64,000 nucleotides of DNA from an uncultured Spirochaetota bacterium (GTDB lineage Bacteria; Spirochaetota; Brevinematia; Brevinematales; JAOACQ01). The stretch is taken from the NCBI GenBank assembly GCA_963783575.1, contig CAWAOD010000004.1:1-64000 (forward strand), read 5' to 3'. The notes under the pieces are model-generated. The model saw nothing but the letters and a program-made list of their open reading frames with translations, was not told where the DNA came from and made no database searches. Both the position numbers and the translations under genes were made by a program. Shown here in pieces: positions 8,884 through 30,156 of this stretch (position 1 is the stretch's first letter; each line of letters starts with the position of its first letter).

Positions 8884-11175
8884 TTAATCGGAAGACGGTT
8901 TGATATCGATGAGATTCAGCCTGACCTCTTCAACTCCCTGGTATTTATTAATCTCAGGTGATACGACAAGATCGAAAAGCAAAGTCTTTTCTCCCGGGCA
9001 ATTCAGCAAACCCTTCATTTTCTGGGCCCAGTTCCATCCGATGACAGGGATATCCTTTCCGTTTTTTGATATGTTCATCAATGAATGGCTGTTGTTCTTC
9101 CCGATTTCCCTGAACGCCGATATCTTAGCTTTTTTGACTATCAGTTTCGGGACCTCGTTACCGTTACCGGTCGGCTCGAGGATGTTTTCAAGATACCTTA
9201 TCATACTTAGCGTCAAATCATCAGTATTGTCCAGAACAGCGTCTATTGAAATTTCATCCTTAAAATCTTCCGGGTTGAATTGCTCCATATACTCCAGCAG
9301 CCTTGCTTTAAACTGTTCCAGATTATCCGACTTTATTATAAATCCCCCGGCCGACTTATGGCCTCCGAATTGTTCCATCAGATCGGAGGTATACTCAAGC
9401 ATTTTCATAACATCAAATCCAAAAACTGCGCGCACCGATCCGCTCGACATCTTTCCGTCAATTGAGATTATTACAGCCGGAAGCTGGAACTGGATGGAAA
9501 GCCGGTTGGCCAAAAGGCCTGTCGTACCTCGTGTAAATTCCTCCGATGATATGAAAATCAGCTTGTTTTTAACGATAGTCTCCTGATCCAGGAATTTATT
9601 GACTATCCCTACTCCGTCATCCACAACGCCTTTCCGGGTATTATCCTTATTCAGAATTTCCTGGACAAGCTCCTCGGCTTCCTTAATTTTATTGGATATA
9701 AGGAGCTCTACACTGAAACTCGCGTCACCGATCCTCCCCGGCGAATTCAGAAGCGGGGAAATGTTCCAGCTTATTTCCCTGCTTGTTATCTTTTCGGTGT
9801 TAAGATTGACCGCCCTAACAAGAAGAATCAGGCCTATTGAAGAATGGGCGATAAGACGGAGCCCTGTTTTTACAATCGTCCTGTTTTCGCCTGTAAGCGG
9901 CATTATATCGGCTATTGTTCCGATAGCGGCCAGCGGAAGGAATTCGAAATATTGCTCCATAAGCTTATTTGTCCTTCCAATGATAAGCCTTCGGTAAACC
10001 TCAGCGCAGAGTTCGCTGTCGGCGACGCTCCGGTGAAGAAAAGCCGGATTGATATAAACACCAAGGTTCTGGCCAATCGTGACAAGTTTATAATCGTTTG
10101 CCTTTTTCAGCATAACCCTGGCCATTTTTAACGTATCTTCCACAGGGTTGGTCAGAGTTACCTGTAAAATCTTTTTAAGATAATTATTGATAAATTTTAA
10201 ATCGAATTCGATGATATTATGGCCGATGATTTTCCTGTCACCGATAAAATTCAAGAATTTTTCAAGCGCTTCCCGGATCGGAATGCCGTCTTTTTCAAGC
10301 ATCTCATTTGTAAGGCCGTTTAACGCGGTAACTTCAGCGCAGACAGGCGTTGAACATTTTATCAGAGACTGAAATTCATCTATTTTAATGCCGTTTTTTA
10401 TCTTTACCGCGCCGATTTCTATAATCTCATCCTTTGTCGGATTCAAGCCCGTTGTTTCGATATCCAGAAAAACGATCTCAAGATTATGATAATCATTGAG
10501 AACATATTTTTCCGACAAAGCGCAGACAAGCTTAAAAGCGACCGAAGACCCGCAGAGCGTGCGGTACGGATAAAAGTCATCATGCATCTTAGGATTGATT
10601 ATGGCGTAAGCTTTTGGAATTACTTCCCTCGGTTCATGATGGTCGGTTATTATTATATCCAGCCCTAATGAATTGGCATACTCAATTTCCTCAACCGATG
10701 AAATCCCGCAATCAACAGTAATAACAAGATTGAACTCATTCATTGCGGCCCAGCTTATAACCTCCTTTGATATTCCGTAATTCTCAAGCCCTTCGGGAAC
10801 CCGGTACACGACATTGGCATCCATTTTTTGAAAAAACTTATAAAGAATTGCGGTCGCGGTAACGCCGTCAACATCCTTATCGCCGAAAATCAAAATTCCC
10901 TGTTTTTCCTGCAGGGCTTTTTCAATCCTGGATATCGCTTTTTCCATATCTTTAAAATAAAACGGTGAATGGAGATTCAAAACAGACGGCTTGGTATATT
11001 CCTGAACTGCCTCGAAGGTGTTTATCCCCCGGTTGATGAGGATGGATGTAATAAATTCGGGATAATGGAACCGGTCCATAAGCGAATCGAGAATCTTCCT
11101 GTCCGGCCTGGGTATATTCCATATCTTTTCAATATTGAAAATACCCTGAACCGGCTGATCTATTTCTTTAGCCAT
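8884..11175 (-). CDS. recJ: ssDNA exonuclease RecJ with an inserted DEDDh/DnaQ-like domain
   Basis: GDKDVDG, ITVDCG, TDHH, TIADIMPL, GGH motifs; internal LDIETTG/GHNIIEFD/HRSVAD. Confidence 0.9.
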   Translation of the reverse strand: MAKEIDQPVQGIFNIEKIWNIPRPDRKILDSLMDRFHYPEFITSILINRGINTFEAVQEYTKPSVLNLHSPFYFKDMEKAISRIEKALQEKQGILIFGDKDVDGVTATAILYKFFQKMDANVVYRVPEGLENYGISKEVISWAAMNEFNLVITVDCGISSVEEIEYANSLGLDIIITDHHEPREVIPKAYAIINPKMHDDFYPYRTLCGSSVAFKLVCALSEKYVLNDYHNLEIVFLDIETTGLNPTKDEIIEIGAVKIKNGIKIDEFQSLIKCSTPVCAEVTALNGLTNEMLEKDGIPIREALEKFLNFIGDRKIIGHNIIEFDLKFINNYLKKILQVTLTNPVEDTLKMARVMLKKANDYKLVTIGQNLGVYINPAFLHRSVADSELCAEVYRRLIIGRTNKLMEQYFEFLPLAAIGTIADIMPLTGENRTIVKTGLRLIAHSSIGLILLVRAVNLNTEKITSREISWNISPLLNSPGRIGDASFSVELLISNKIKEAEELVQEILNKDNTRKGVVDDGVGIVNKFLDQETIVKNKLIFISSEEFTRGTTGLLANRLSIQFQLPAVIISIDGKMSSGSVRAVFGFDVMKMLEYTSDLMEQFGGHKSAGGFIIKSDNLEQFKARLLEYMEQFNPEDFKDEISIDAVLDNTDDLTLSMIRYLENILEPTGNGNEVPKLIVKKAKISAFREIGKNNSHSLMNISKNGKDIPVIGWNWAQKMKGLLNCPGEKTLLFDLVVSPEINKYQGVEEVRLNLIDIKPSSD

Positions 11176-11186
11176 TTTGCCTCCAT

Positions 11187-11335
11187 GGGTTCACTGAAAA
11201 ATGAGTTAAAATTTGAAAACTATAACCAACCTTTTTTAATTGCATTTATAACTCATTGTTATAAAATAGGATATGACACCAATAGAATACTGTTTATTAA
11301 ACTTTTTAAGTTTTATGCTGATTTTCAGTGAACCC
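11187..11335. mobile_element. 149-bp MITE, copy 1
   Basis: TIR gggttcactgaaaa/ttttcagtgaaccc; 6-bp direct repeat CTCCAT; second copy at 27433. Confidence 0.9.
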
Positions 11336-13174: not shown

Positions 13175-14865
13175 CAGACTGTGTGAAAACTCAGTAAAAT
13201 TTTATAGTAAAATCGATTAATTATACAAAAACTCCATTTTTTGATATATTTTTCAAGCTAAAAAAATCTTAGTTTAAAAAATCTATCCGAATACGATAAA
13301 CGATGGTTTATTAGCATCAAACCAGAGTCATAAGTCTCTTTATTCCCAATATATTCAATACTTTTATTAAATTATGAATGAATCCTGCCAAACTGGATTC
13401 CGTCAGAACGCCATCCTTTCCCTTCATTAAAAAATAACTGTAACCCATATTCCTTTTTATCGATCCAAATGGATGTTCACATATCTCTTTCCTTTTCTCT
13501 ATGATCTTTTTCCCGGCTTCAGAACGAATTTTCCTCTTGAAGTTCTCAATTTCTTCTTTTCTAACTGGTACTTTGATACTTCGTCCTTCCACGCTTTCAG
13601 TACACTTATTTCTTACTTCACATTGGCTGCATAAGCCGCACTTGTACCTGACTATCTCTTTTCCTCCATTGACCTTCTCTACTTTTTTCCCATTTCTCAC
13701 TAATGGGTTTCCCTCCGGACAATAATAAACATTTTGTCCCGGATCATATTTGAATTTATCAACCTGGTATTCTTCAGCAGGTACTCCTTTATTATCTTCT
13801 TTGCCTCGAATCCTTGCCTTATGTCCGTCATCCGGATTCGGCATATATACGTTATGTCCCTTATCTATACATTCCAGTATCTGCGGTTCGCTGTAATAAC
13901 CGGCATCCGATACTTTGACCGTTTCAGTCTCTACCTTAAGCTCGTCCTTTATTTCTTCTACTCGGTCACACATTCCTGCCATCTGTTTGATATCATTGTT
14001 TTCATTCGTCACATCAATCACCACAATCAGTTTATTCGCATCATCTACTGCCATCTGCAGATTATATGCAATGTCGGATTTCCCTTTATCATTCATAAAC
14101 CGGCTTTCCGGGTCATTTGAATAATATTTCTCCATTTCAGGATTTCCCTCAAAAATCTTTTTAATAGCCTCAACTTTATCCTTTTTTGTTTTCATTTTCT
14201 TTAAACGTTCCGCTATCTTTCCGGAAAGAAATTCAAATTCATTCTTTTCTTCCTTATCGTTCTTATCCATCTCGTTCAAATATTCTTCGATCTTTTGATC
14301 TATTCTATGTATGATTTCTTCTATGTTTTTCCTATGATAAACATTGTTATTGTGGTTTTGCGCACTGATCTTGGTTCCATCAATTCCAACAACGTCAAAT
14401 GATAAAAGCCCGGCTTTATGACATATCTTCAAAAATTCTCTGAATATCGACTGTATTCCCTTCTTATTATCTTTCCTGAAGTCGGCAATCGTCTTGAAAT
14501 CCGGCGCTAGTCGTCCAGTCAGCCACATCAACTCTGTGTTTCTTCGGCACTCTCTCTCTAATTTCCTGCTTGTCCTGATTTTATTCAAATATCCGTAAAT
14601 ATAGATTTTTAAAAGTATTTCGGATTTATATGAACTTCTGCCGGTTGATGCTTCTTTTACTTTAAAACCAACTCCTTTCATATTTAGCTTATCAACAAAA
14701 ATATCTATAAACCTTACCGGATCTTCTTCTCCTAACAGATCTTCCAGTGTTTCATTGAACAGAACTATCTGATCCCTTGATTCTCCCTCAATATGCTTCA
14801 TCTTTTACTCCGATTATTTTTGTTCTAATAATTATAGCATATTTACTGTGTTTTCACACAGTCTG
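13175..14865 (-). mobile_element. IS1182-family element
   Basis: Perfect 16-bp IR cagactgtgtgaaaac; CAA direct repeat; inserted in a cccttcgtcaagctcaggg REP-like motif. Confidence 0.92.
13317..14801 (-). CDS. IS1182-family transposase
   Basis: LLKIYIYGY, SRKLERE, PDFKTIADFR, IDGTK, DAGY, EHPFGSIK. Confidence 0.93.
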   Translation of the reverse strand: MKHIEGESRDQIVLFNETLEDLLGEEDPVRFIDIFVDKLNMKGVGFKVKEASTGRSSYKSEILLKIYIYGYLNKIRTSRKLERECRRNTELMWLTGRLAPDFKTIADFRKDNKKGIQSIFREFLKICHKAGLLSFDVVGIDGTKISAQNHNNNVYHRKNIEEIIHRIDQKIEEYLNEMDKNDKEEKNEFEFLSGKIAERLKKMKTKKDKVEAIKKIFEGNPEMEKYYSNDPESRFMNDKGKSDIAYNLQMAVDDANKLIVVIDVTNENNDIKQMAGMCDRVEEIKDELKVETETVKVSDAGYYSEPQILECIDKGHNVYMPNPDDGHKARIRGKEDNKGVPAEEYQVDKFKYDPGQNVYYCPEGNPLVRNGKKVEKVNGGKEIVRYKCGLCSQCEVRNKCTESVEGRSIKVPVRKEEIENFKRKIRSEAGKKIIEKRKEICEHPFGSIKRNMGYSYFLMKGKDGVLTESSLAGFIHNLIKVLNILGIKRLMTLV

Positions 14866-14973
14866 CAAGCTCAGGGCAGGCGAAATACGAACAGATCGAT
14901 TTATATGCCACCAATGATTATAAACTAAAACACCTCGTGAAGATATTCAGCTTATCTGGGGAATTATTAACAA

Positions 14974-15092
14974 GTTAGCCGCCTAAACCTCCAACAGTAC
15001 CTATTTTGACTTTTCCGGCTCGCTTGTAATTGGCAATAATCACTCCGCTTTGTTTAATAGAACTCTATATTAATGTAAATGCTGCCGGAATC
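14974..15092 (-). pseudogene. 3' remnant of a RibD-C/DHFR-like cassette gene ending in an R'' site
   Basis: Reads IPAAFTLI*SSIKQSGVIIANYKRAGKVKIGTVGGLGG*, paralogous to 15693-16286; stop TAA lies inside GGCTAAC. Confidence 0.75.
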
Positions 15093-15125
15093 GTATCACA
15101 AAGATCTATCGTTTTAGTTATGCAC

Positions 15126-15681
15126 TCATTTTTTTGTCGGCTCGTAGTAAAGAGCTACTGCACTACAACCAAATGTTTTTGTTTTTAAGAGTTGAAGATT
15201 AACTCTATCCTTGACGTTTTTAAATAATGGCAAGCCGCTTCCTAAAATAATTGGCTGAACGTCAAGCTGGTATTCATCAATTAAGTCAAATTGCGTTAAG
15301 GCTACTATTAAACTTGGGCTGCCAACTAAAATGTTTTTACCCGCTTGTCGCTTGAGTTCTAAAACATCTTCTTTAATGACTTCCTTTTCCAATTTTGTAT
15401 TTTTCCAATCAACATTTTTCAGCGTTCGTGAAAAAACAATCTTTGAAATATTGTCTATTAATACAGCAAATTCATCTGTTGGTTTGTTACCAGTAGGATT
15501 TTTTACCACAGATGGCCAATAACTTTCCATAAGCTGAAATGTTATCCTTCCAAAATATAATGGTGTCTGCGTTACTAAATAGCTCATTGTAATGTTGAAG
15601 TATTTCATCATCTGCAATCATTGCCGTGTGGTCGCAAAACCCGTCCAATGTCATATTGATTGCTGCAATTAGTTTTCTCAT
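15126..15681 (-). pseudogene. RibD-C/DHFR-like protein, frameshifted; followed by R'' site GCATAAC (15117-15123)
   Basis: MRKLIAAINMTLDG in one frame continues as FGRITFQLM...PIILGSG in another. Confidence 0.82.
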
Positions 15682-15692
15682 TTTATTTCTTC

Positions 15693-16286
15693 TTAAGCTC
15701 CAATAGTACCTGTCTTGACTTTTCCGGCTTGTTTGTAATTAGCAATAATCACTCCACTTGGTGTAACCGAACTTTCTATTAATGAAAATGCCGCCGGGAT
15801 CACGCCATTGATAAATAATTTTTTTCCTTTACCAAGAGTCAACGGGTAAATTTTGAGCCAGAGTTCATCCACTAAATCATTCTTAAGTAGCAGCTGGATG
15901 AGCTTAGCACTGCCCCAAACTTTAATGTCGGAGCCTTTTGAATTTTTGAGTTTTTCGATATCTGCCAAGCTTTTGAGGAAAACTGTGTTTTTCCAATCTG
16001 ACTTTTTCATGGTCTTGGACATGACGTATTTTGTGACATCATTGATACCTGGCCATCCATTTTCATGCTCTGGCCAGTAGGAGGCAAAAATCTCAAATGT
16101 TTTTCTGCCCAAAAGAAGGTCTGCAGGTTTCATCTGTTTTTCCATGACCTTACCAATAACATCGTCACCATAAGGCGCAACCCAACCGCCATATTTGAAA
16201 CCGCCTGATGTATCTTCCTCAGGTGCCCCAGGTGCTTGCATTACTCCATCTAGTGTAATCATTGATATGACGATTATTTTTCTCAT
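15693..16286 (-). CDS. RibD-C/dihydrofolate reductase-like protein
   Basis: MITLDGVMQAPG, LLGRKTF, LVDEL..PLTLGKG. Confidence 0.9.
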   Translation of the reverse strand: MRKIIVISMITLDGVMQAPGAPEEDTSGGFKYGGWVAPYGDDVIGKVMEKQMKPADLLLGRKTFEIFASYWPEHENGWPGINDVTKYVMSKTMKKSDWKNTVFLKSLADIEKLKNSKGSDIKVWGSAKLIQLLLKNDLVDELWLKIYPLTLGKGKKLFINGVIPAAFSLIESSVTPSGVIIANYKQAGKVKTGTIGA

Positions 16287-16532
16287 GTCCCGCCTCCTTC
16301 GTTAAAATTACATCCTCAAATGTTTAATGTCTAAAAACATTTTATCATTATCCTATTTTATTAAACCGTCTTTAGGTCAATTAATAAATACTTTAAGAAT
16401 TCTTTTTAATCAAGTAATTCAAACAAAATATTTACCAATAATCAACTAACCGAAAAATATAGCGCGATTTCATATCGTTTCTTTCGCCAGGACGGTGAAA
16501 CTATTTGCTATTATTAAGCCCACAAGTATTCC

Positions 16533-16616
16533 GTTTAACGGTACGTCCGAGTAGAGAAATCAGTATTGGTAGTGTCCTCTTAGCTTTGCGCAGCTCAGCT
16601 TGAACACCAGTTAGGC
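16533..16616 (-). repeat. attC-like site, 84 bp, with a classical-type first half
   Basis: Minus strand GCCTAAC-tggtg-TTCAAGC ... GTTAAAC. Confidence 0.6.
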
Positions 16617-16647
16617 CGCAGAGTGCTGTTGCGGCCTATAACCCTGC

Positions 16648-17034
16648 TTATTGGCCGGCCGGCGGTTGCCACAGTTCTACTTTGTTTCCTTCCGGATCGA
16701 TGACCCATGCAAACTTTCCATAATCGGATTCATCAATCTTTTCGAGAACGTTACAGCCTTCTTCTCGCAAGGCTTTGACCAATCCCTGAAGGTCTTCTAC
16801 TCTATAGTTGACCATGAAAGGAGCAGAGCTCGGAGCAAAGTGCTCGCTTTCTTGCGGATCGATCAACCACGCAGTTGTACCTGCAACAGGCTTGTCCTCG
16901 GCGTCGGTCCAATCGAAGGCAGCTCCGCCCCATTCTTGGACATCGATTCCTAGGTGCCGCTTATACCAAGCCTGTAGCGCCGGAGCAATCTTGGCCTTGA
17001 AGAAGATGCCGCCAATACCAGTGACTCGTTTCAT
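16648..17034 (-). CDS. VOC/glyoxalase-family protein, GC-rich
   Basis: MKRVTGIGGIFF...YGKFAWVIDPEGNKVELW. Confidence 0.9.
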   Translation of the reverse strand: MKRVTGIGGIFFKAKIAPALQAWYKRHLGIDVQEWGGAAFDWTDAEDKPVAGTTAWLIDPQESEHFAPSSAPFMVNYRVEDLQGLVKALREEGCNVLEKIDESDYGKFAWVIDPEGNKVELWQPPAGQ

Positions 17035-17344
17035 GAGACCTCCTATTTTGATATACTATTTATTGAATCTTCCATAATTTTATTCATCTGTATGTCTTCT
17101 TCAGAAACACTGGCTACAGTATCATCTCCTCTTTACTTGGGCATTTTTTTAGTACAGCTTAATAATAAATTTAACATCGAAACAAACATAATTATAAATC
17201 TTTTTCATCTTTACTCCATAATAAGAAGCATCATCTTTGTTTTAAAAAACTCATCATAGTCAATTAAATCCATATCATTAATACTTTCTGGAATATAATT
17301 CCTCTCCATGCTTTTTTTTGCAAATAATACCAAAGGGGGATAAT

Positions 17345-17710
17345 TTACAATCTTCTTTCTTCCATTAAAGCAAATATATTTTCATCCATATCCTTGAAAA
17401 AGGCTAGCCAGATTTCTTTATCATTGTATTTGGCTGTAAAATGCGGTTCTCTTATTGTTTTTACGCCTTTGTTTTTAATTTTCTCAAACTCGGAATTAAT
17501 TTCGTTTACCATAAAATATATTATCATTCCGAAAGGCTTTTTTTGATCCGATTCATTTTTACCGAGCATCAATCTTATTCCGTTTAAATCAAAAAGGGCA
17601 ACATTATTATCATGGAAAAGGTATTTCAATCCGATCGTATCCCTGTAAAATAACATCGATTTCTCGATATTAGAAACCGTTATTGCAATCTGGCCGATTT
17701 TGTCTATCAT
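17345..17710 (-). CDS. VOC/glyoxalase-family protein
   Basis: IGQIAITV..FYRDTIGL...AFFKDMDENIFAL. Confidence 0.88.
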   Translation of the reverse strand: MIDKIGQIAITVSNIEKSMLFYRDTIGLKYLFHDNNVALFDLNGIRLMLGKNESDQKKPFGMIIYFMVNEINSEFEKIKNKGVKTIREPHFTAKYNDKEIWLAFFKDMDENIFALMEERRL

Positions 17711-17799
17711 AATGCTCTCCTTATTTATTTAAAATTAATAATCCACTTTAAAAAAGTCAATGGTTTTATTTCTTTAGTGTATTGAGAAAAAGGCTTTTT

Positions 17800-17940
17800 A
17801 GATTTTTGACATTTGGATTACACCAAGCTATCAAGTAGCCTATTGGATAACCTTGATATAATGAATCAATTAAATCTCTTACTTTTGAAGCATCCCAGAC
17901 AAAAGGTCCTTGTATTTCTGGAATTATGAAATTGCCTTGA
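17800..17940 (-). pseudogene. N-terminal remnant of a DUF262 gene
   Basis: [29 protein letters not shown]. Confidence 0.75.
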
Positions 17941-18185
17941 AGGATGGCGGCTTTATAATAAAGCACCGCACATGGCGTACAACGTGAAGTGTAAACATCG
18001 TTTGCCGGTGCGATCATAGGGAGCATTGGCATGTGTTTTTGCTCTGCAAAAACCATTACAAAGGCAAATGTGGAAATGTCAAGAGTTTTTCCCATACCTG
18101 TACTCGGGTAATTTCCCACCCCTTCCACAAGAGTTTTTCCCATACCTTCCACGGGAGTTTTTCCCATAGGAGGAGGCAAGAATGG

Positions 18186-18935
18186 TTACTCAACCTCCTT
18201 ATTCAAATTTTGTATTCTGTAAGATTCTCCGCTCAAGTTATAAATATTTGAATGATGTAAAAGCCTGTCCAGAAGAGCTGTTGTCATAATCGGGTCTCCC
18301 ATCATTTCAGCCCAATCCTGAAATCCCTTATTCGATGTTATCACTATCGATGTCTTTTCATACAATTCACTTACAAGACTAAAGAATAGATTTGCCTCCT
18401 TCTTTTCGATAGGTGTGTAACCTATCTCATCAATGATTAATAAGTGTGACTTCATCATCCGGTTCAGCCTGAAAGAAGAACTTCTCTGGATGTCCGTTGT
18501 TTTAAGAAACTTAATGAGAGTAGTCATCCTTTCAAAGCAGACAATATATCCCTTTTCAACTGCCCGGATTCCGATACTAATTGACAGATGCGTTTTCCCC
18601 AGCCCCGGAGACCCAAAGAACAACAGGTTATGATGATTATCAATCCAGCGGAAATCCAATAACTGTGAAACATCCATTTTAGATATTCCATTCACTTTTT
18701 CAAAATTAAAACCTTCCACATCTTTGCGGACTGGGAAATGTGCTCCTGCCATATTCCGCTGAAAACGTTTTTCCACTCTATAATTCAATTCCAGAGAAAG
18801 CAGCCTCTGCAAAAAACTCAGATAAGACTCTTTCGCCTTTTCAGCCTCGCCGATTTCATCGTCAATCCGTTTAATCATCCCCTTCAACCCGAGAGTTGCA
18901 AGCTGCGTTATGATTTGTTCTCTTATCTTCAACAT
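18186..18935 (-). CDS. istB: IS21 helper ATPase IstB
   Basis: GSPGLGKT, LLIIDEIGY, TSN, ALLDRLLHH. Confidence 0.95.
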   Translation of the reverse strand: MLKIREQIITQLATLGLKGMIKRIDDEIGEAEKAKESYLSFLQRLLSLELNYRVEKRFQRNMAGAHFPVRKDVEGFNFEKVNGISKMDVSQLLDFRWIDNHHNLLFFGSPGLGKTHLSISIGIRAVEKGYIVCFERMTTLIKFLKTTDIQRSSSFRLNRMMKSHLLIIDEIGYTPIEKKEANLFFSLVSELYEKTSIVITSNKGFQDWAEMMGDPIMTTALLDRLLHHSNIYNLSGESYRIQNLNKEVE

Positions 18936-20482
18936 TGCCGGCCCCCAATGGAACTACAGAGTCTCTGGTATTTCCCGATGTCTGATTTGGCTACTTCCAG
19001 ATAGTGTTCAGGATTCATAAGTGGCCTGACTATCTTTTCTACATTCATAGGTATTTCTAAATGTTCTATTTTCAGACAGTTCCGGTAATTATCCCATAAA
19101 TCCTTCATTGAGTAACTATCATTATCCAGACAGTTTGAGATCGCTTGTGTCAGCTTATCTGTATCAATTATCTTGTCCCTGAAGTATTTTCTTCCGGAAA
19201 GACATTGGTCCCTTACATAACGATTGAACTTCCTGAAATTACATTCAAGAAAATCCTTCCAGCCGGGAATATCAAAGTACCCGCTTACTTCTTCTTTCAA
19301 TAACTGCACAGTCTTTCCCATTTCCCGGATCATTGCCCTGTTGGTTACAATCTGCCCCGGAATCACTGAAAGCCGGTATTCGGCGATTTGCTCACCCGTA
19401 ATCCTGTCAAAGACAAAAAGCAGGCTGTCAGTTTTGTAAATGTCAACCGAACCGTTCCTGTATTTTTCAGGTATATCATACTGGCTTGTGCCCACAGCGA
19501 TCCGGCATTTGTCACTCACACTGCGAGCTTCCCTTGCACCGATCCTGTCCTTACGGAATATAGAATTCCTGACCGGCCGGAGATATGGCCTTTCCGTTTC
19601 AATCTCTATCAGCGGTATTTTCATGGTTGCCTGGGATATTCTCCCGTTGGCTTTTCTTTCCAGCCATTTCAACAGGCTTTCATCTGCTTCCAATAAACTG
19701 TTGAACTCCCTGACCGCAAAAAAACTATACTTGATGAATTTGGCCACATTTTCGATCTTTCCCTTGCTTTCCGGGTCTGAAGGCCGGCATACATACAATT
19801 TAAGACCCATTTCATCTTTGAAATACTGAAAGTCTTTCGTGTAGATGATATCGCCGGAGTTCTCACTCACAACCATCGTGCAGTCCTGATCGATGACAAG
19901 TTCCTGCGGTATCCCGCTCATATATGCGAAACAGTCCAATAGATGATTGATCAGGTCTTCTGTCCGGAATGGCCTCTCCTGGAGGGCCGCATACTTAAAA
20001 CGACTGGCGGATAACACCGCGGCAAATATGTAATACCTTCTGCCATATCTGTCGGTATATTGACCGAAATCAAGCTGGAGCTGCTTTCCATATGGCATGT
20101 CCGGCACTTTTGTGTAATACCGGCGCTTTTCATTCAAGGTAAGCTGCCCGCTTTCAATCAGGTAATGTACGAAATTCCTCATCGTATTTTCATTCGCCGG
20201 AAGTTTGCCTTTTACCTCCAATAAATAGTCATACAAAGCAGACATATTCAGCCGGATGTAATCATTCTTTGCATATACTTTCAATATGTCTGTTTTTATT
20301 CCTTCGAATTCTTTTTCACGGAAAGAGAATTCCATCAGGCTTTTCTGGTATTCGGAATCGTTCATAGCCCAATATTTTCGGACTGTCTTAATATCTATTG
20401 ACAGTTCCCGGGATACACCATTTTTACTTTTCCCCAAAAGTTTCAGTTTTTTTATGTCCTGATACATAATATTTTTCACCAT
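18929..20482 (-). CDS. istA: IS21 transposase IstA
   Basis: QLDFG, PQELVID, PESKGKIE. Confidence 0.94.
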   Translation of the reverse strand: MVKNIMYQDIKKLKLLGKSKNGVSRELSIDIKTVRKYWAMNDSEYQKSLMEFSFREKEFEGIKTDILKVYAKNDYIRLNMSALYDYLLEVKGKLPANENTMRNFVHYLIESGQLTLNEKRRYYTKVPDMPYGKQLQLDFGQYTDRYGRRYYIFAAVLSASRFKYAALQERPFRTEDLINHLLDCFAYMSGIPQELVIDQDCTMVVSENSGDIIYTKDFQYFKDEMGLKLYVCRPSDPESKGKIENVAKFIKYSFFAVREFNSLLEADESLLKWLERKANGRISQATMKIPLIEIETERPYLRPVRNSIFRKDRIGAREARSVSDKCRIAVGTSQYDIPEKYRNGSVDIYKTDSLLFVFDRITGEQIAEYRLSVIPGQIVTNRAMIREMGKTVQLLKEEVSGYFDIPGWKDFLECNFRKFNRYVRDQCLSGRKYFRDKIIDTDKLTQAISNCLDNDSYSMKDLWDNYRNCLKIEHLEIPMNVEKIVRPLMNPEHYLEVAKSDIGKYQRLCSSIGGRQC

Positions 20483-20762
20483 TCCTGCCTTCCTTTAATG
20501 AATTTTCATTAAAGGTAATCTTCAAGCCTCTCTATGGGAAATCTGTTTGTGACAGGTATGGGAATTTCATTTATTGCTACCCTGGTAAATTAGTTTATCA
20601 TTTCCAAAATGTGCCGAAGGCCAAAGGGGCGACAAAGCGCTTACACTGGGTTGTACGCCGTTGCTTGTCGATTATTAAATAATTTTTACCACTAACCACG
20701 ATGGGGAGTTGATAATTGACTATTCATTCAAATTTGAATACATTATATTAAGGAGGATGATT

Positions 20763-21227
20763 ATGTCAATAATTGTTGATTTCAAAAAAGTATCCAAGGT
20801 TGGTCTAGAATCTTCCCCTGTATCAGAAGCGCTTGCCGGTTTGCGCGCTAATGAATCCCGATTCTTAAAGAACAAATTCAATCATGATTTTTCAGTAAAA
20901 GCTGCAAGCGAAAGCCAAGACACTTTAGACTATGTAAACCGAATTCTGAAAAACGAAAGAGATATTGAGATCGTTTCAAAACCTCTTGAGACCTCATTAT
21001 TTCAAGTGGGGAACATCAAATATGCTTATGTTTTCTATGAGAATGGCCTTGGGATAAACGTTATGTATACGATTGATGATCCCAAGAAGCGAGCTGTAGG
21101 TTTTAAACTTTCAGAAGGGATGGAAGTACCAAAAGAATTAGAAGGAAAATTTAGGTTTGCAAGGCAAAAGTCTAAACTGGCTGGAGCTATTCGTGGTTCA
21201 TTTTTAGTGATTAAGGGAGATTATTAG
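20763..21227 (+). CDS. Conserved hypothetical protein, inverted inside cassette B3 (20650-21355)
   Basis: AGGAGG RBS, own TTGACT-17-TACATT promoter; 154 aa with LAGLRANE and KRAVGFKLS motifs. Confidence 0.75.
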   Translation: MSIIVDFKKVSKVGLESSPVSEALAGLRANESRFLKNKFNHDFSVKAASESQDTLDYVNRILKNERDIEIVSKPLETSLFQVGNIKYAYVFYENGLGINVMYTIDDPKKRAVGFKLSEGMEVPKELEGKFRFARQKSKLAGAIRGSFLVIKGDY

Positions 21228-21348
21228 GATTGGTATGATCTATAGAATATTTAACAGATTATAACTCACAAATAATAAATCAATTATCCACACTAATTCT
21301 TCAGATGTCGGATTAAAGAAAAATATAAATTTCTGGTTGAGCAAAGAC

Positions 21349-21594
21349 GTACAACGTTGCAGCCATAAGAATCCCACAAGCCTTAGAGCTAGCCCCGCGC
21401 GCTTAGGCTTGCAAATGTGGTGAGCCCGTAAACAATGATTTCTATTTTATTAATCATCATAGTCAATTTGAACTCCTTCCTCTTTATCAAAAAGTAAATA
21501 CGGGCGAACCCGAGGAGCGCAGGAAAAACTTTTTCTTCTTCTCCGTTATGCCCCGAAAAGTTTTTTCGAGCACCGAAGAGTTATAGCCGCGGTT
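21349..21594 (-). repeat. Long attC-like site (about 250 bp), copy 1
   Basis: Highly similar to 25734-25985; AAC...tatagccgcgGTT ends. Confidence 0.82.
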
Positions 21595-23285
21595 GAGCCT
21601 GTAGAAAAAGTCCGTCATTCATGTACAGAATATCGTATATACTTTAAAATATATTGGAAATAAAATCAAGAGGTAAAAGCAATTATGGCAAGATATAAGA
21701 AAGTTAATTACGATCAAATGGAACTCATTCCTGTATCATTCGACGAGCAGATAATTCCCGGAACCTTCGAATATACATTGAGCTTTCTTGTCGACAATAA
21801 AATTGATCTTAAAATCTTTGAGAATAAGTATAAGAACGACGCTACCGGTGCCCCGGCTTATAATCCGTGGGTTATGCTGAAGATAATACTCTACAGCTAT
21901 TCCCGCGGTATTTTTACATCACGTGAAATCGAGTATTTGTGTAAAACGAATATTATAGCCAAAGCCCTTTCTGCCAATTCAATACCGCACTTTACTTCCA
22001 TCGCCGATTTTGTATCATCGATGAAAAATGAGATAAATAACGTTTTCCTGAATATATTAATGGTTTGTGACGAACTGAACCTCATAGGCGGTGACATGTT
22101 CGCGCTGGACGGGTGTAAATTATCATCGAATGCATCGAAGGAATGGAGCGGAACATTTAAGGATTTGAGGAAGAAAAAAAGAGAAGCTGGAAAACCTGGT
22201 TAAGGAAATGCTTGATGAACATGAAAAGCGTGATCAGGATGGCGGTTTTCCTGAGAAGAAGAAGGAAAAGGATCTTGCAAGAATTGAAAAAATTTTAAAG
22301 AAAGCGGAAAAGATAGAAAAGTTTCTGGAAAGTGAAAAACCCAAAGACAAGGCACGGCATGGCGAAAAACAGTCCAATGTCACTGACAACGAGAGTGCGA
22401 AAATAAAGAGTTCACATGGTGTTATCCAGGGCTACAACGGACTTTCTGTAGTGGATTCGAAATATCAGGTTGTGGTATATCCGGAAGCTTTCGGCAGCGG
22501 GTCGGAAGGAGAATTCCTAAAAGGCATGGTCCGTAAAACAAAAGTAATGATGGGAAATCTGGGAAAAGATATAAGCGGTGGGATAGTTCTGGCGGACACC
22601 AATTATTTCAGTGCCCTGTGATACCGGATAATCATTTCCGTAAGCGGGATGCACGTTTCAGGGATATGGACAGGTTCAAACCTGCAAAGAAAGGACAATA
22701 TACAATTGATGATTTTCAATATGATCCGGAAAATAATGTTTATATATGCAAAAAAGGAGAGGAACTCAGGTTCAGATATAACCATACTGTTAATCATATT
22801 ACATACGCGAAATATATCTGCCGGTTATCGGCCTGCCGTAATTGTCCGTTCCGGAAAGACTGCTTAAAAAAGGAGACGACAAAATACCGCACATTGCAAA
22901 GGCCGTTAAATGCAGATAACAGACATTACTCGGATGAGATGAAAAAGTTCATAGACAAACCTGAAGGCAGAAAGCTTTATGCGAAAAGAATGGCTATAGT
23001 TGAGCCTGTATTCGGTAATATCAGGGCATGTAAAGGTATGGATCGATTTACGTTGAGGGGAAAGGGAAAAGTGAATATTCAATGGGTATTATATAATACT
23101 GTGCACAATATCGGGAAAATTCAGGTCTATGGAGGTATATAATGGCATAGTGATGGAATAAAAACAGTTTTGCCGGTAAATTCAGCCCGGTTTTATAAAA
23201 ATAAAGTAATTCCAGACAGATCAAAAAAAACAAACTGTTTGGGAATGTAGGATTATTACCTGAAATTAACTTTTTCTACATGGCC
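21595..23285 (+). mobile_element. IS1182-family element inserted at the GTT core
   Basis: IR tgtagaaaaagt/actttttctaca; GTT(G) duplicated on both sides. Confidence 0.88.
21685..23142 (+). pseudogene. IS1182 transposase in three pieces
   Basis: MLKIILYSY/LDGCK, GYNG/ADTNY and VEPVFGNI motifs split across ORFs 21685, 22208 and 22618. Confidence 0.88.
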
Positions 23286-23701
23286 GTTGTACGAAGGGCA
23301 CGACATATTATAAAAACCGCCACGGACGGCGGATATTAATTTATATGCTATAAAATTATTCTAATGAATTATTATTAATTACAAAATTATTTAGAATTTG
23401 TAATAGACTTTTTTGACCACAAAATTGTATTCCTTTTTTTAGGTAATATAAATGATAACCTGGTTTAACTAACTTACTGAATACTAGGAAATAAAGGTCT
23501 TGTTTAGAATAAAATTTGATTAATTCATTAAAAACTTCTGAATATAATTTAAAATAACCAATTTCACATAAAGCGCATAAAGAATAGATTGCTTTATTAG
23601 ATAAAGAATTTGTTATTTTGTCAGTAATTTCATTTTGAACATCATTATAAGATTCTTTTTCGAATCTATTAACAAAGTCTAAATATAATATTAAATAATT
23701 A

Positions 23702-25565
23702 GTGCCTGAACGGAAACTCCAATTTTAAAAAATTTCTAAATCAAAAGCTCAGTTATGCTATTTTCCTGATTACAAAAATTTTTCCTGAAACAAAACTTAT
23801 TAAATACTTTGCACCGTATCTAAGAATTAATACAAAAAAAACCAAAATATAACATTTTAAAAGCTTATGGGCAGACTATACCCTTAGATATCAAATTAGC
23901 CGGAAAATCTATGCTGCCTTCATAATTTTCTTTTTTCCCGGGAGGCGTGCCTCTCTTTCCTGCCTCTTTATCTCTTTCTGCACAAGGATATGTCCCATAA
24001 TCTGAATGTTCCTGGCGACAAAAGACAAACTGACATACCTCTTAAACCCAACTATTCCATGGTCAAGGCATCTGTCCAAACCATGATTTTCCATGGCGCT
24101 GATCCCTGACTCCACAGCTCTATGTGCCCGTTTTGCCACCCGGTACTCCTCTGTTTTTTCCCGCTCCTTTTCATCAATCGTTAGCTTGCCTTTCCTTGTC
24201 ATAATCAGTTTATCCACCATTTTTCCCAGTTTGCTCTTGTTTTCAGGACTGTAAAATCCTTTATCATAGCTCACCTGTCTGATGTTATTAAATACAGAAA
24301 TAGTTTCTTCCATAATACTAACTGCCACCGCTTCGTCAGTCTTCTTTTCCATAACCATGTGATTAAGCATAAAACCAAACTGATCCTGCACCACACAAAC
24401 CCGGACTCCAAGTTCCTGTGGTACTCCGGCTTTTCCTTTACTGATCCACTCTGTATGAGGCTCGAAAATCGAAAATATTTTCTCTTCGTGATGGATAACC
24501 TCACCTTTCAGTACCCGTCTGTTGACTTGATCCATCAGCTTTAGAGCCAGCCTAATATAATGTTCTAATGTCATTTCCAATGGTATATTTGTAACCATCT
24601 TTAGAGAATCTGTTACTTTCAAGAGAATATTTTCGATATCCTTGAGATAATTCCTGTATTCCTTTTTTATCCGTTTGTCACTTTTACCTATCTTTACTTG
24701 ATCTTTTGAAGTCGATCGTTTCAGCCTTTGTATGCTCATAACTTTTTTTTTAAGCTTCCCGATAGTATGTTTCCCCTGGCGAAAACCTGTTAGACCTGCA
24801 TTTTTAAAGAATCCGACTATACCTGTAATTACCTTTCTCATGGCATCAAACAGAAGACTGATATCTGTCGGGAAATGAACGTCTGTTTCAACAACAAAGG
24901 AATCAACCTTCACTTTTAAACCTTTTTTTGCTTTTTCCCCAATAAGATCGTGGCCGGCTTTAACAACCACTTCATTAATCTTTGATAGTATTTCAGGAGT
25001 GAATAGAGAAATGTTCTCCCTGAGTGTCTGCAAAGCATATCTATCGACAGTAAACTCAGTTTTGCCAAGCATCTGCCTTATAGCTTTGTGATTATTCGCC
25101 TGATCCTGGAGTTTGTCATAGTCCCAGTTGCAATTCAATCGCAGCATTCCCATCACAAAGATTTCCCATATACTCATCCCCTTTCTTCCGATTCTTTTCT
25201 TTTTTTTATCTGGTATCATTTCCTCAAATATCTTGAATATTTTGTCCTTGATTTCAGGATTGCAATATATATATTTCAGGCCCATAAGCAGCTTTGGAAC
25301 CTCGTCACGGCAAGTTAAATCAATCACTATTTCACTGATATCAACTTCACCGATCTTTTTCTGTACTTCTTCGTTTTGTCTCATAAATTTTTCCTCGAAG
25401 ATTTAAAAAATTATATTTTTGTCGGGTTGATGCATGTCCATATCTGATAATATATTATAGCATTTTTATTCGGTTTTGTATTGCTTTTTTATTCAAATCT
25501 TCAATTTTATTTTATGCCATAATTCCCTTGCTAGTACTGCATTATCTGTATTTCCGTTCAGACAC
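23702..25565 (-). mobile_element. IS5-like/ISNCY insertion sequence
   Basis: IR gtgYctgaacggaaa; 6-bp direct repeat TAATTA. Confidence 0.88.
23909..25384 (-). CDS. DDE transposase (IS5-like/ISNCY)
   Basis: VDSFVVETDVHFPTD, YDKGFYS, RAVESGIS. Confidence 0.9.
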   Translation of the reverse strand: MRQNEEVQKKIGEVDISEIVIDLTCRDEVPKLLMGLKYIYCNPEIKDKIFKIFEEMIPDKKKKRIGRKGMSIWEIFVMGMLRLNCNWDYDKLQDQANNHKAIRQMLGKTEFTVDRYALQTLRENISLFTPEILSKINEVVVKAGHDLIGEKAKKGLKVKVDSFVVETDVHFPTDISLLFDAMRKVITGIVGFFKNAGLTGFRQGKHTIGKLKKKVMSIQRLKRSTSKDQVKIGKSDKRIKKEYRNYLKDIENILLKVTDSLKMVTNIPLEMTLEHYIRLALKLMDQVNRRVLKGEVIHHEEKIFSIFEPHTEWISKGKAGVPQELGVRVCVVQDQFGFMLNHMVMEKKTDEAVAVSIMEETISVFNNIRQVSYDKGFYSPENKSKLGKMVDKLIMTRKGKLTIDEKEREKTEEYRVAKRAHRAVESGISAMENHGLDRCLDHGIVGFKRYVSLSFVARNIQIMGHILVQKEIKRQEREARLPGKKKIMKAA

Positions 25566-25733
25566 TAATTAATTGAACTTGCTGAACCTTCATTGATATT
25601 AACATGAACAGAACTTCGGGCTTGTACTACTATACCGTCAGAGACTTCTATTTCTAACATAATCACCTCTCTATGATTTTTCAATCAAAAATATTTTCAG
25701 TTAACTTGTTTTAATTAACCCAGCAACGATTGC

Positions 25734-25985
25734 GTTTAACGGTGCGGCTATACGACATTTGCAAGCCTTAGCACCAGCCCCGCGCGCTTAGGCTTGCAAA
25801 TGTGGTGAGCCCGTAAACAATGATTTCTATTTTATTAATCATCATAGTAAATTTGAACTCCTTCCTCTTTATCAAAAAGTAAATACGGACGAACCCGAGG
25901 AGCGCAGGAAAAACTTTTCTCTTTCTCCTCCGTTACGCCCTGAAAAGTTTTTTCGAGCACCGGAGTGATATAGCCGCGGTTAAGT
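25734..25985 (-). repeat. Long attC-like site (252 bp), copy 2, intact
   Basis: Minus strand ACTTAAC (RYYYAAC) ... GTTAAAC (GTTRRRY); terminal stem aaccgcggctata/tatagccgcaccgtt; internal hairpins. Confidence 0.85.
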
Positions 25986-26846
25986 GAAGTGTTTGCCATG
26001 TATTCTAAACATTTTTGTATCAATAATAAACTCAAATCCAGTTACTTTCAACCAGCTATTAATGCCTGTAATTAGCACAAAAATGATTTCAATATAATAA
26101 GATAATAATTTAGTATTTATTTTATAATATTTAAGACATTTTACTAAGTTATATTTGGGTATATCTCCAAAATCATCAACAATAAATTCATCTTTTGACA
26201 AATGTTTTAATAAAATATATCGATCAGGAAATTCTTTATTTTCTGGATTCATATCTTTTCCACTTTCTAATTTATAACCTTGTGCAACTTCATGTGTGTC
26301 GATATACAATTCATTTATTTTTTGTGCAGAATCAAGTTCTCTCAAACATTTTAAAACACTTATTATAGCAATAATTTGTTCATCTTCCATTTTTTCAAGA
26401 ATAAATGGATTTTTTAATAATTCTTGCAAAGCTTTTTCACTTATCTCCCAATGCTTAAAAACTTGAAAACCTAGATATTTGTTAGTACTAAGTTGATTTT
26501 CTAATATTTCTTTCTTTAATGAAAGAAAATTATTGATAGCTTTACTTGAGAATTCTTTCTTTTCTAATGAATACACGATTTTTTGAAGTTGATTTAATAC
26601 TGAAAGAAATTCACGATCTACAAGCATTTTAGCATAATCAATAATTTCTTTATTCAATTTTTTATGAGAGAACGATTTTACTGTTTCATAAAAAAAATAT
26701 AGTAAAGGTATAGCAATAAAAGCTGTAGCAATGTTAATAATTAAATCATGTAATTTTATATTAAGAGAAGATAGAAAATATAATATAAAACCAATAATTA
26801 AAGCAACAAGATATGGCAATGTTTTTAATAATATTTTTTTAAACAT
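25980..26846 (-). CDS. Hypothetical protein with two N-terminal TM helices; first cassette (B1) of array B
   Basis: 288 aa from ATG 26846; stop TAA lies within the R'' site; very AT-rich. Confidence 0.75.
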   Translation of the reverse strand: MFKKILLKTLPYLVALIIGFILYFLSSLNIKLHDLIINIATAFIAIPLLYFFYETVKSFSHKKLNKEIIDYAKMLVDREFLSVLNQLQKIVYSLEKKEFSSKAINNFLSLKKEILENQLSTNKYLGFQVFKHWEISEKALQELLKNPFILEKMEDEQIIAIISVLKCLRELDSAQKINELYIDTHEVAQGYKLESGKDMNPENKEFPDRYILLKHLSKDEFIVDDFGDIPKYNLVKCLKYYKINTKLLSYYIEIIFVLITGINSWLKVTGFEFIIDTKMFRIHGKHFT

Positions 26847-26883
26847 TAATTTATTCCTATTAATAAAAAACGGCAAACATTTC

Positions 26884-26925
26884 ACTTAACTCGATATATA
26901 CGAAGTTTACTTCGTATATTACCCC
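26884..26925 (-). promoter_or_regulatory. attI-like site of array B
   Basis: GTTAAGT core next to palindrome atatacgaagt-tt-acttcgtatat; homologous to 7083-7116. Confidence 0.55.
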
Positions 26926-27209
26926 TAAAAACCTGTTTTTTACGAAGTAATTAATAAATATTGTTTATAAAAAATCAGCGGACTTTGTATATCCATAATT
27001 GCTTTATTACTAACATAAGTGTAAATCTCTGTATTTTTAATGCTTTTAAACAATAGTTCTTATTATATCGTAAATCAGTTTTGTAATTTAAACATTATAT
27101 TATAACATAGTTGATCCGGAATAGTATCACCCATAAGGGGGGATATGGATAATCAAACTTTTAATGATTATAATGTTATACAATTATTAAACCGCAAAAA
27201 CACTTAAAT

Positions 27210-27266
27210 TCTTCCGGTCAACGGACATAAATATTTTTAGCATTTTAATTTAATGAGTGTCAAGAA
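27210..27266 (-). promoter_or_regulatory. Conserved leader and promoter of array B
   Basis: TTGACA (27263-27258), 18 bp, TGcTAAAAA; tcttccggtcaacgga box shared with 7183. Confidence 0.65.
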
Positions 27267-27432
27267 TCATTTTATAAACAGACATAACCTCTCTTCCACC
27301 AACAGGTGACTTTTGTAAATATTCAGAACAACCAGTCAATAACCAAAAAGAACCGGTGAATATAAGTTAATATTGAGCATAAAAGAATTGTTTTAATTAG
27401 GAGTGAAGCCAAGTAACAATGGGAGCAAGGAC

Positions 27433-27581
27433 GGGTTCACTGAAAAATGAGTTAAAATTTGAAAACTATAACCAACCGTTTCTAATTGCATTTATAACTC
27501 ATTGTTATAAAATAGGATAGGACACTAATAAAATACTGTTTATTAAACATTTTAAGATTTATGCTGATTTTCAATGAACCC
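27433..27581. mobile_element. 149-bp MITE, copy 2
   Basis: Near-identical to 11187-11335; flanks AAGGAC/AAGTAC. Confidence 0.88.
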
Positions 27582-27620
27582 AAGTACGCTCATTGAGTCA
27601 ACCCTATAATCACATAGCCA

Positions 27621-27894
27621 GCCGAACGTTAGTTCGGCACCGCAACGGTTGCGCAAAGATTCACGAGATAGTAAAGCAGAGATGAAGTGTCCTTTTTGAG
27701 AGCGAATTGGAGGAGCGCCAAGCCGATCTGTACGGAATAAAATTCCGTTTGAAACACGGATGTGAGTTAAAGGCGGGCAAAACCAAGTAACATAGGGAAC
27801 AGACTGTTCCATGAAATCTACTTTAGCACATCAACTGTGGCGAACTCCGTTCGCCAAACGCAACGATTGCGCAAATGACCCGCCCCTTGGGCGG
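27621..27894. repeat. Two copies of a multi-hairpin intergenic repeat
   Basis: gccgaac..gttcggc plus cgcaacgRttgcgcaaa (plus ccgccc..gggcgg); recurs at 63894-63969. Confidence 0.6.
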
Positions 27895-28050
27895 CACTTT
27901 CCTGATGGTCTTAGGAAGAAAGGAAGTATTACTCCCTTTTTTATAAAAGAGAACAGTATACAAATGATTGAGTTTATCCCCGGATTGATGTATAATATTA
28001 CCTAAAATTTTCTTTAAGTCATTAAATAAGATTTTATTGAGGAGCACTTT

Positions 28051-30156
28051 ATGACCAAGATCGATGTTGAGAAATCAAAAAAAGCAGGTGATTATATCAG
28101 GTATCTGTCGCTTTTTAGCATAGAAAACGCCAAGTCCGGCCACCCCGGTTTACCGCTGGGTTGCGCAGATATAGGTGTTCTTCTTTACAGATATATTTTA
28201 AGGTATAATACGGCCGAACAAATATGGATAAACAGGGACCGCTTTATCTTATCGGCCGGACATGGCTCAATGTTCCTTTATTCACTTTTGCATTGCGCCG
28301 GTTACAAAATACGCCTTTCCGATCTTGCCAATTTCAGGCAGCTTGACAGCATCACTCCAGGCCACCCTGAATATGATCCCGAACTTGGGATTGAAACGAC
28401 AACCGGCCCGCTTGCCCAGGGTTTTGCGAACTCTGTCGGTGCTGCTATTGAGGGAAAAATGCTTGCCGCCAAGTTCAACCGCGAGAAATTTCCGATTTTT
28501 GATTATAATGTTTATACGCTGATGGGCGACGGCTGTAATATGGAAGGATTGAGCTATGAAGCCGGATCTCTTGCAGGCCATCTCGGACTTGACAATCTGA
28601 TAGCCATTTACGATTCGAATAAAATATCAATAGACGGTTCGACGGATATTACTTTTACCGAAGACGTGGGAAAAAGGTACGAAGCTTTCGGATGGTTTGT
28701 AGAGTATTGCGATGCCTGCGAAGTTGAAGATATGTTACAGAAGTTTAATAAGCTGAAATCCTTAAAAGGGAAGCCTAAAATATTAATTGTTAAAACCACC
28801 ATCGGATTCGGGCTGAACAAGTCAAAAGGAACTGCAAAGATCCATGGTTCAGCGGCGGGAATTGATGAAATAGTCTATTTTATCCAGAACTCCAGGGTAA
28901 AAAGGCTGTTTGAAAAAAATTACGGAAACGATATTGTTGAGAATTTTGATAAATTAAAAGAGCTTTGTTTAAAAAATATTTCTGAAAAAACATTGCCTGT
29001 TGAAAGTAAAGAAGATACCGCTTTCATACAGGAAAGCAATACGGAAAATAAAATCGTATACGATGCCTGGAAAAAGATGATGGAAGATTACCAAAAAATC
29101 TATCCTTCCGAGTTCAAGGAATTGAGCCGGTATCAAACCTCCCAGGTACCAACCACACTTAAAGAAAAACTTCTGCATTATAAAGAGGAAAAAGCCGATG
29201 CAACAAGGAATATTTCGGGAAGAGTACTCGGCATATGTGCCGATGAAATTCCGCAGATTGTCGGGGGGTCGGCCGATCTTGTCGAGTCTACAAAAGCAAC
29301 GGTAAAATCATCAAAATATATTACAAGAGACGATTTCAGCGGGAGGAATATCGCTTTCGGTGTCAGGGAGCATTCAATGGGCTCTATCTGCAACGGTCTT
29401 GCCCTCAGCGGCATGCTTTTACCATTTTCATCAACATTCTTTACCTTTTTTGATTATATGAAACCTTCGGTTCGCCTGTCTGCCATTATGAAAATCAAGC
29501 ATCTTTTTATTTTTACTCATGACTCGATATATGTCGGCGAGGATGGACCTACCCATCAGCCTATAGAGCATTTGAACGCTTTGCGTCTTATCCCCGGGAT
29601 TTACACATTCAGGCCTGCAAATGATGCCGAAACCGCATTTAGCTACCTGTATTATTTCGATGAAATGAAGGGACCGATGGCGCTTATTTGCTCGCGGCAG
29701 AATATGCCGGACAGCGCTTATAAGTTTGATAAAGACCGTAAGAAATATTATGGCGATTTTAAAAAGGGCGCTTATATTATTTACGAGACCGATAAAGATA
29801 CGAAACCCGGTATAATTCTTTCCGCTTCCGGATCGGAAGTCGGCCTGGCAATTGACTGCGCGAAACTTATTGAAGAGAGAAATAAATCCAATGTCAGGGT
29901 CGTCAGTATTCCCTGTCTTGAATTATTCAATGAGAGCGGCAAAAATTATAAAGATTCGATTCTTGGTAATGGAGATGTACCTCTTGTTTTCATTGAAACC
30001 GCTTCGCACAGGGGAGTGAGCCTCTTCTATGATAAAGCGATGACTTTAATTGACATAGAACAATTCGGATATTCAGGCCCCGGAAATAAAGTTGCCGCCA
30101 AGCTTGGTTTTACCCCTGACGGTATTTATGATAAAATCAAGGACCTTTTAAAATAA
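28051..30156 (+). CDS. tkt: Transketolase
   Basis: SGHPG, RDRFILSAGH, GDGCNMEG, GVREH, THDSIYVGEDGPTHQP. Confidence 0.96.
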   Translation: MTKIDVEKSKKAGDYIRYLSLFSIENAKSGHPGLPLGCADIGVLLYRYILRYNTAEQIWINRDRFILSAGHGSMFLYSLLHCAGYKIRLSDLANFRQLDSITPGHPEYDPELGIETTTGPLAQGFANSVGAAIEGKMLAAKFNREKFPIFDYNVYTLMGDGCNMEGLSYEAGSLAGHLGLDNLIAIYDSNKISIDGSTDITFTEDVGKRYEAFGWFVEYCDACEVEDMLQKFNKLKSLKGKPKILIVKTTIGFGLNKSKGTAKIHGSAAGIDEIVYFIQNSRVKRLFEKNYGNDIVENFDKLKELCLKNISEKTLPVESKEDTAFIQESNTENKIVYDAWKKMMEDYQKIYPSEFKELSRYQTSQVPTTLKEKLLHYKEEKADATRNISGRVLGICADEIPQIVGGSADLVESTKATVKSSKYITRDDFSGRNIAFGVREHSMGSICNGLALSGMLLPFSSTFFTFFDYMKPSVRLSAIMKIKHLFIFTHDSIYVGEDGPTHQPIEHLNALRLIPGIYTFRPANDAETAFSYLYYFDEMKGPMALICSRQNMPDSAYKFDKDRKKYYGDFKKGAYIIYETDKDTKPGIILSASGSEVGLAIDCAKLIEERNKSNVRVVSIPCLELFNESGKNYKDSILGNGDVPLVFIETASHRGVSLFYDKAMTLIDIEQFGYSGPGNKVAAKLGFTPDGIYDKIKDLLK

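Follow-up and report, generated by a model that had tools for sequence, protein, structure and literature searches.

An integron-like cassette array behind an integrase-deleted platform in a Spirochaetota genome, probably loaded in trans

How is an array of integron-type cassettes filled when no intact tyrosine recombinase is encoded near it? This question is raised by positions 14974 to 27266 of a 64,000-nucleotide stretch of DNA from an uncultured Spirochaetota bacterium (the window; positions 1 to 64000 of contig C4 in the source genome, G000, a 4.9-Mb assembly of 18 contigs that include C5, C9, C10, C13, and C15), which a sequence-only reading had described as an integrase-less array served in trans. 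Comparisons with the rest of the assembly and with 11 genomes of the same family (G002, G004, G005, G009, and G011 among them) suggest an integron-like array located behind a platform from which the integrase gene was deleted. This platform is likely one of about ten that were loaded in trans by a family of recombinases without the IntI-specific I2 insertion.

The cassette array is real and occupies the minus strand, with insertion sequences (IS) making up 6091 bp of its 12,293-bp span. From the promoter leftward, it consists of the following features:

27205..27263, minus strand: promoter module of the TTGACA-N18-TATAAT..TCCGTTGACCGG family, with the -10 box mutated to TAAAAA (12 genome copies, 11 of them with a perfect -10)
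27099..27107, minus strand: TGTTATAAT, an extended -10-like motif that may be an alternative cassette promoter
26976..27059, minus strand: relic of the integrase 3' end (..TEIYTYVS..IQSPL), identified by similarity and common to the sister platform on C13
26888..26919, minus strand: attI-like site, a 10-bp inverted repeat followed by ATCGAG^TT with the crossover at 26890, assigned by core identity with the site on C5
25979..26890, minus strand: cassette B1, 912 bp, intact, with ends complementary at 18 of 20 positions and an A/C mismatch at position 11
25738..25981, minus strand: attC1, 244 bp from AAC to GTT (252 bp with the 7-nt boxes), bottom-strand fold with a z score of -3.9
25566..25740, minus strand: B2a, 5' stub of a cassette, without a matching end and without similarity to the C10 homologue of B2b
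23702..25565, minus strand: ISNCY, 1864 bp, flanked by TAATTA in three of four copies
23286..23701, minus strand: B2b, the 3'-terminal third of another cassette, closed by TACAAC (R'') and identified by homology to a C10 gene
21595..23285, unstranded: IS1182-family element, 1691 bp, with a frameshifted transposase gene on the plus strand (pieces matching NF033551), directly after an R'' AAC, which is duplicated
21353..21594, minus strand: attC2, 242 bp (250 bp with boxes), right arm decayed, 94% similar to attC1 over 223 nt
20650..21355, minus strand: cassette B3, 706 bp, with an inverted 155-codon open reading frame (ORF; 20763-21227, plus strand) preceded by a ribosome-binding site, ends complementary at 15 of 20 positions
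20607..20652, minus strand: left half of attC3
18071..20606, minus strand: IS21 (istA, istB), 2536 bp, inserted in attC3 with a 5-bp duplication
17981..18070, minus strand: right half of attC3, with the R' GTT at 17983
17766..17983, minus strand: B4, truncated start of a cassette containing a GmrSD_N fragment, without a matching end (12 of 20)
14974..17710, minus strand: tail with a pair of glyoxalase-fold genes, a pair of RibD_C genes of which the second carries a frameshift, and a partial duplicate of 110 bp

Much of this layout had been read correctly from the letters, including the attI-like crossover at 26890, the coordinates of B1 and its stop codon inside ACTTAAC, the two attC sites of 252 and 250 bp (boxes included), the inverted gene of B3, and the attC split by IS21.

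The attI-like core, CGTATATATCGAG^TT, is identical to the one downstream of the integrase gene on C5 and is preceded by a perfect 10-bp inverted repeat (26919-26896; hairpin z score, -3.9). The same core stands beside the integrase gene on C5 and in relatives, and G^TT is the point where the homology between platforms ends; judging by sequence, the array is headed by an attI with a G^TT crossover. No intact integrase adjoins this site either in the window, where only the 3' relic is found, or on C5, where the gene contains two frameshifts. The window does lack any intact tyrosine recombinase, as had been proposed, but it retains the relic at 27059-26976, which is 62% identical to the integrase of a relative over 29 residues and scores 21 bits, with a best score of 6.8 among 900 shuffled frames. 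The window platform appears to be a deleted integron that retains an integrase relic, rather than a site that never had an integrase. Behind the promoter module, a 5' relic that seemed plausible on visual inspection was rejected, since its score fell below those of the shuffles. The promoter proposed at 27263 exists as a copy of the module, but its -10 box is damaged, alone among the 12 copies, and the promoter scan called no minus-strand promoters in 26800-28060.

The case for loading in trans comes from the sister platforms and from shared cassette blocks. Three sister pairs are 88%, 92%, and 86% alike upstream; the likeness ends with the G of G^TT, and the next 1.5 kb have nothing in common, so that loading in trans is likely to have taken place in the past. 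One such pair is formed by the window platform and its C13 sister, which are 88% alike over 433 nt and carry the same relic, suggesting that deletion of the integrase preceded their different loading. The integrase-linked array on C5 and the orphan array on C9 share a two-cassette block of 2638 bp, 99.85% identical, that starts 2 nt before G^TT. In G011, the first cassette behind an orphan attI is 99.3% identical to that of an integrase-linked array, and further cassettes are common to both arrays in other orders. Cassettes shared in differing orders are at most indirect signs that an integrase excises and integrates them on single-stranded attC. Another platform that combines a relic with an attI is found in G070. 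In the source genome, an attI-like core lies 116 to 413 nt downstream of 10 of the 12 promoter modules, with 2 or fewer mismatches in 7 of these 10, in a match that tolerated up to 4 mismatches and had no chance control. The promoter module had no matches in metagenome contigs and a single short, weak hit in the 11 same-family genomes; of 400 other genomes in the phylum, 3 contain the strict attI pattern, as do 3 metagenome loci. At metagenome locus L100:287-317, this pattern directly follows the end of a non-integrase gene and precedes a cassette-like start, making it another probable orphan platform. Two attI-like cores on C13, at 214027 (plus strand) and 218524 (minus strand), face each other 4.5 kb apart; the former is inside an array, behind an IS1182 stub.

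A further orphan platform is found in the window itself (7241-4371, minus strand). It has a promoter module with a perfect -10, an attI at 7089, and a 1927-bp cassette (ends complementary at 17 of 20 positions) with GmrSD_N/NsnA-like and HEPN genes. These are followed by a left-end stub of IS1182 at R'' and then by a Phd/ParE pair that ends in a cassette-like TACAAC.

Among the 15 matches to PF00589 in the genome, the one at C5:457659 adjoins an array. This gene points toward an attI core that matches the window core exactly and then to an array of about 25 kb. It is frameshifted twice, both times at runs of G, and the second break precedes the catalytic tyrosine. The search with integrase hidden Markov models that had been suggested for the genome and its relatives did yield an integrase candidate, with intact orthologues elsewhere, but the C5 copy is broken and lacks I2. 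Full-frame orthologues are found in 5 of the 11 same-family genomes (48 to 61% identity), with four open-frame matches in G011. An attI-like motif lies 3' of the integrase gene in G002, G004, G005, and G011, so that in these relatives an intact integrase stands beside attI, and cassettes with matched ends follow the integrase gene in G005 and G011. The best match of the G011 orthologue among solved structures is Vibrio cholerae IntI4 (PDB 2A3V; E value, 9e-41), to which it aligns in two blocks; about 42 residues of IntI4 in the I2 region have no counterpart. This short spacing recurs in the C5 copy and in 104 of 106 measurable homologues; the two outliers are mis-anchored patterns. A tyrosine recombinase with the IntI-specific I2 insertion was accordingly not found, and the best TIGR02249 score in the genome is 100.5 bits, against a cut-off of 265.

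Cassette ends and attC-like sites follow common rules across the genome. An attC right-arm model built from nine seeds gave 28 hits, one of which was skipped for lack of GTT; the remaining 27 were pooled with 9 attI cores and with 3 manually added window sites to give 39 candidate crossovers, nine of which were the model's seeds. A partner end complementary at 16 or more of 20 positions, sought within 7 kb, is present in 21 of these 39; the background is 541 of 74,258 GTT triplets genome-wide. All 21 matched-end crossovers show the A/C mismatch at position 11. The attC-like sites span 145 to 245 bp, with R'' and R' triplets and paired inner arms. Their stem is an unbroken 9 to 10 bp that starts 1 to 2 nt after AAC, with 2 to 3 additional bases on its right side; single bulges are absent. 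Over nine attC sites, 95% of the outer-stem cells are paired (21 to 40% in slid controls) and 7 of the 14 pairs show two-sided changes, a test that is inflated because the sites were picked by a detector demanding an 8-bp complement. In attC1, a 9-bp outer stem encloses a branched interior of about 210 nt; copies of this 244-bp site are found on seven contigs of the source genome, and outside it the search found partial matches in G011 and, among 60 relatives, a single marginal hit. The halves of attC3 measure 47 and 89 nt. The canonical attC anatomy (a central spacer, extrahelical bases bulging from the L box, and a terminal structure of 20 to 100 nt) is absent, and the window has no matches in Rfam. 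Among sequencing runs, no matching RNA run was listed, and the best DNA run had 0.21 of the words in common.

Whether these parts form a distributed integron is, in our judgment, evenly balanced. Such a system would have a single I2-less recombinase of a second, undescribed type, serving about ten copy-pasted promoter-attI platforms throughout the chromosome; it would read hairpins of up to 245 bp by the A/C mismatch, not by extrahelical bases, and a dedicated IS1182 parasite would reshuffle the arrays. In the preferred reading of an integrase-deleted platform loaded in trans, a cassette once excised would form a single long hairpin from both of its ends and the attC arms. The position-11 mismatch and an asymmetric loop of 2 to 3 nt, rather than extrahelical bases, would mark this hairpin, and recombination would take place at G^TT. 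Internal deletion of the integrase gene would give rise to a platform, which would next be duplicated and then receive its cassettes, or be rejoined at G^TT, through an enzyme encoded at another locus. The window array is likely frozen by now, eroding through IS insertion, homing of IS1182 to R'', and recombination between IS copies.

The integrase relics of the window, C13, and G070, as well as the several integrase copies in G011, could also mean that every platform derives from a complete integron of its own, which received its cassettes in cis and only later lost its integrase, with nothing happening in trans; integrase loss is a listed origin of clusters of attC sites lacking integrases (CALINs; PMC4889954, accessible portion). 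This explanation is distinctly improbable: sisters that share an integrase-less spacer yet differ from G^TT onward would require identical independent deletions, and the block common to C5 and C9 is nearly identical and starts at the crossover. A system that is still active, with an intact integrase in unassembled DNA or with assembly errors in place of the C5 frameshifts, is somewhat less improbable but still unlikely. The assembly is 89.85% complete, both C5 breaks lie at runs of G, and the C5/C9 duplicate looks recent; on the other hand, the arrays are heavily invaded by IS, and assembly errors are an unlikely source of the frameshifts, since all 31 full-length copies of a second IS1182 family (IS1182b) have open frames and 64 ORFs reach at least 1000 codons, which argues that frameshift errors are rare, with the proviso that repeats may polish better than unique DNA. 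That the 244-bp units are dispersed hairpin repeats or miniature inverted-repeat transposable elements (MITEs) of the REP/BOX kind, in an array that is merely an IS hotspot, might be suggested by the other dispersed intergenic hairpin repeats and the two short Y1 transposase matches in the genome. It is effectively refuted for these sites, as it leaves unexplained the cassette-specific complementary ends with their fixed mismatch, the identity of the attI with the integrase-linked site, and the recurrence of this layout next to intact integrases in relatives.

The preferred reading, an integrase-deleted platform loaded in trans, has several points against it, apart from the way in which the sites and cores counted above were selected. 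The C5 gene is the sole full-length candidate for the integrase in the assembly, and its two breaks limit the support for the service in trans proposed earlier to the past. The relic is closer to the enzyme of a relative (62%) than to that of C5 (54%). No 5' relic could be detected, and the promoter modules have no 5' border in common. Only one of the four cassette starts in the window, that of B1, has a well-matched end; B3 reaches 15 of 20 and the others 11 to 12. No matched-end cassette was found downstream of the G009 integrase, and three homologues from Patescibacteria/Peregrinibacteria have other genes directly 3', with no attI-like motif seen on reading.

Compared with known systems, the array shares with canonical IntI integrons (class 1; V. 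cholerae IntI4) the G^TT crossover and the stop codon in R'', but differs in the missing I2, the lack of a single bulged base in the aligned stem pairs, and cassette ends that pair over about 20 bases. The I2 insertion has been described as needed for docking of extrahelical bases (PMC7790495, accessible portion). Since neither I2 nor the attC anatomy is as expected, the array is not classified as a canonical integron, although it is integron-like in its working. An integron-like subgroup in which the insertion is not fully conserved has been reported, with no arrays described in the accessible portion of that source (PMC8138268). The chromosomal integron of Treponema denticola, cited in the sequence-only reading as a precedent, resembles this array in cassette gene orientation only: in the accessible portion of PMC3607928, attC sites are 63 to 68 bp long in T. 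denticola and 63 to 132 bp in Treponema integrons generally, versus 145 to 245 bp here, and attI is treated as one per integron, versus about ten platforms here; the integrase family here also lacks I2. By its layout (three attC-like, noncanonical sites and no intact recombinase in 64 kb), the array falls under the definition of CALINs, which requires at least two attC sites with no intI nearby. It resembles CALINs and single attC sites lacking integrases (SALINs) in the possible use in trans and the IS-driven decay (PMC4889954; bioRxiv 10.1101/2022.09.11.507474, accessible portions). However, CALINs are defined irrespective of attI and described there as cut off from Pc, whereas this array keeps an attI-like site, a promoter module, and a relic, and the terminal structure of about 210 nt contrasts with the 20 to 100 nt of CALIN and canonical attC sites (PMC4889954).

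The IS1182 insertions resemble the IS1111-attC group (cited in the accessible portion of PMC11187229) in targeting one fixed position in attC. That group consists of RNA-guided IS110/IS1111 elements, whereas the window element, which matches NF033551 (IS1182) and not an IS110/IS1111 transposase, is of the DDE type and makes a 3-bp AAC duplication at R''. In the literature searched, with most subscription journals outside its coverage, neither I2-less arrays nor multiple orphan attI platforms nor attC-homing IS1182 are described. This locus combines these three features and contributes very long attC sites and evidence from sister platforms for loading in trans, with the window array being a decayed example of its type. 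IntegronFinder with IntI models would probably miss it. If an I2-less enzyme does shuffle cassettes, the I2 helix is not the sole way to run an integron, and a class of gene-capture systems would escape surveys that demand I2 or short attC sites. With multiple docking sites, several captured genes could hold the first position simultaneously, in contrast to a single long array.

The IS1182 element, absent from the earlier list of features, separates attC2 from its cassette. All 18 left ends of this family follow an R'' AAC, and all 8 right ends precede AAC, mostly followed by a recognizable attC arm. Because near-identical copies occupy equivalent positions, homologous recombination could delete or swap blocks; the differing arms beyond the IS on C5 and C9 fit such an exchange. 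IS21, ISNCY, and IS1182b were rejected as attC specific, given their varied flanks in the genome. The 31 full-length IS1182b copies are near identical and not located at attC sites; one is at window 13230-14880. The earlier view of B2 as one IS-split cassette did not hold. Removal of the IS gives a 144-codon frame, but the ends match at only 11 of 20 positions, and the part beyond ISNCY is the last third of a C10-type cassette gene (52% identity to residues 294-416 of a 429-residue product in the C10 array, starting at the IS end), which indicates a chimera. Since ISNCY prefers TAATTA, the apparent target duplication there is no proof of simple insertion.

The B1 gene (26846-25980, minus strand) encodes a 288-residue protein of an uncharacterized but conserved family with at least 123 homologues, none of the 120 listed having a Pfam domain; its matches in the atlas are only to unnamed clusters. 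Family searches gave no assignment for the B3 ORF. In the distal tail, the sites at 16610, 15117, and 14974 had been taken for R'' borders of decayed cassettes, and this claim is not sustained. Only 16610 fits RYYYAAC, the motif occurs once in 14900-17985 (1.7 expected), and 16530-16620 folds no better than shuffles (z score, 0.5 to 0.65), with no hairpin. The genome-wide end-pair scan has, among the matches listed in the tail, no pair at 17 or more of 20 positions and none at 16 with the position-11 mismatch. Cassette borders are not demonstrable in the tail; a decayed junction at 16613-16537 is possible. Its glyoxalase gene of 51% GC had no matches among plasmids.

Several other elements accompany these loci. 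Upstream of the platform, the window contains this insertion:

27433..27581, unstranded: 149-bp MITE-like repeat with about 20 genome copies

A second window copy of this repeat is at 11187-11335. Five clusters of paired tyrosine recombinase genes are found at C5:3402-32380 and C15:6573-27747; we take them to be, possibly, RIT-type elements. Finally, window 8884-11175 (minus strand) encodes a RecJ-like DHH protein that carries an exonuclease domain of the RNase T type as an insertion.

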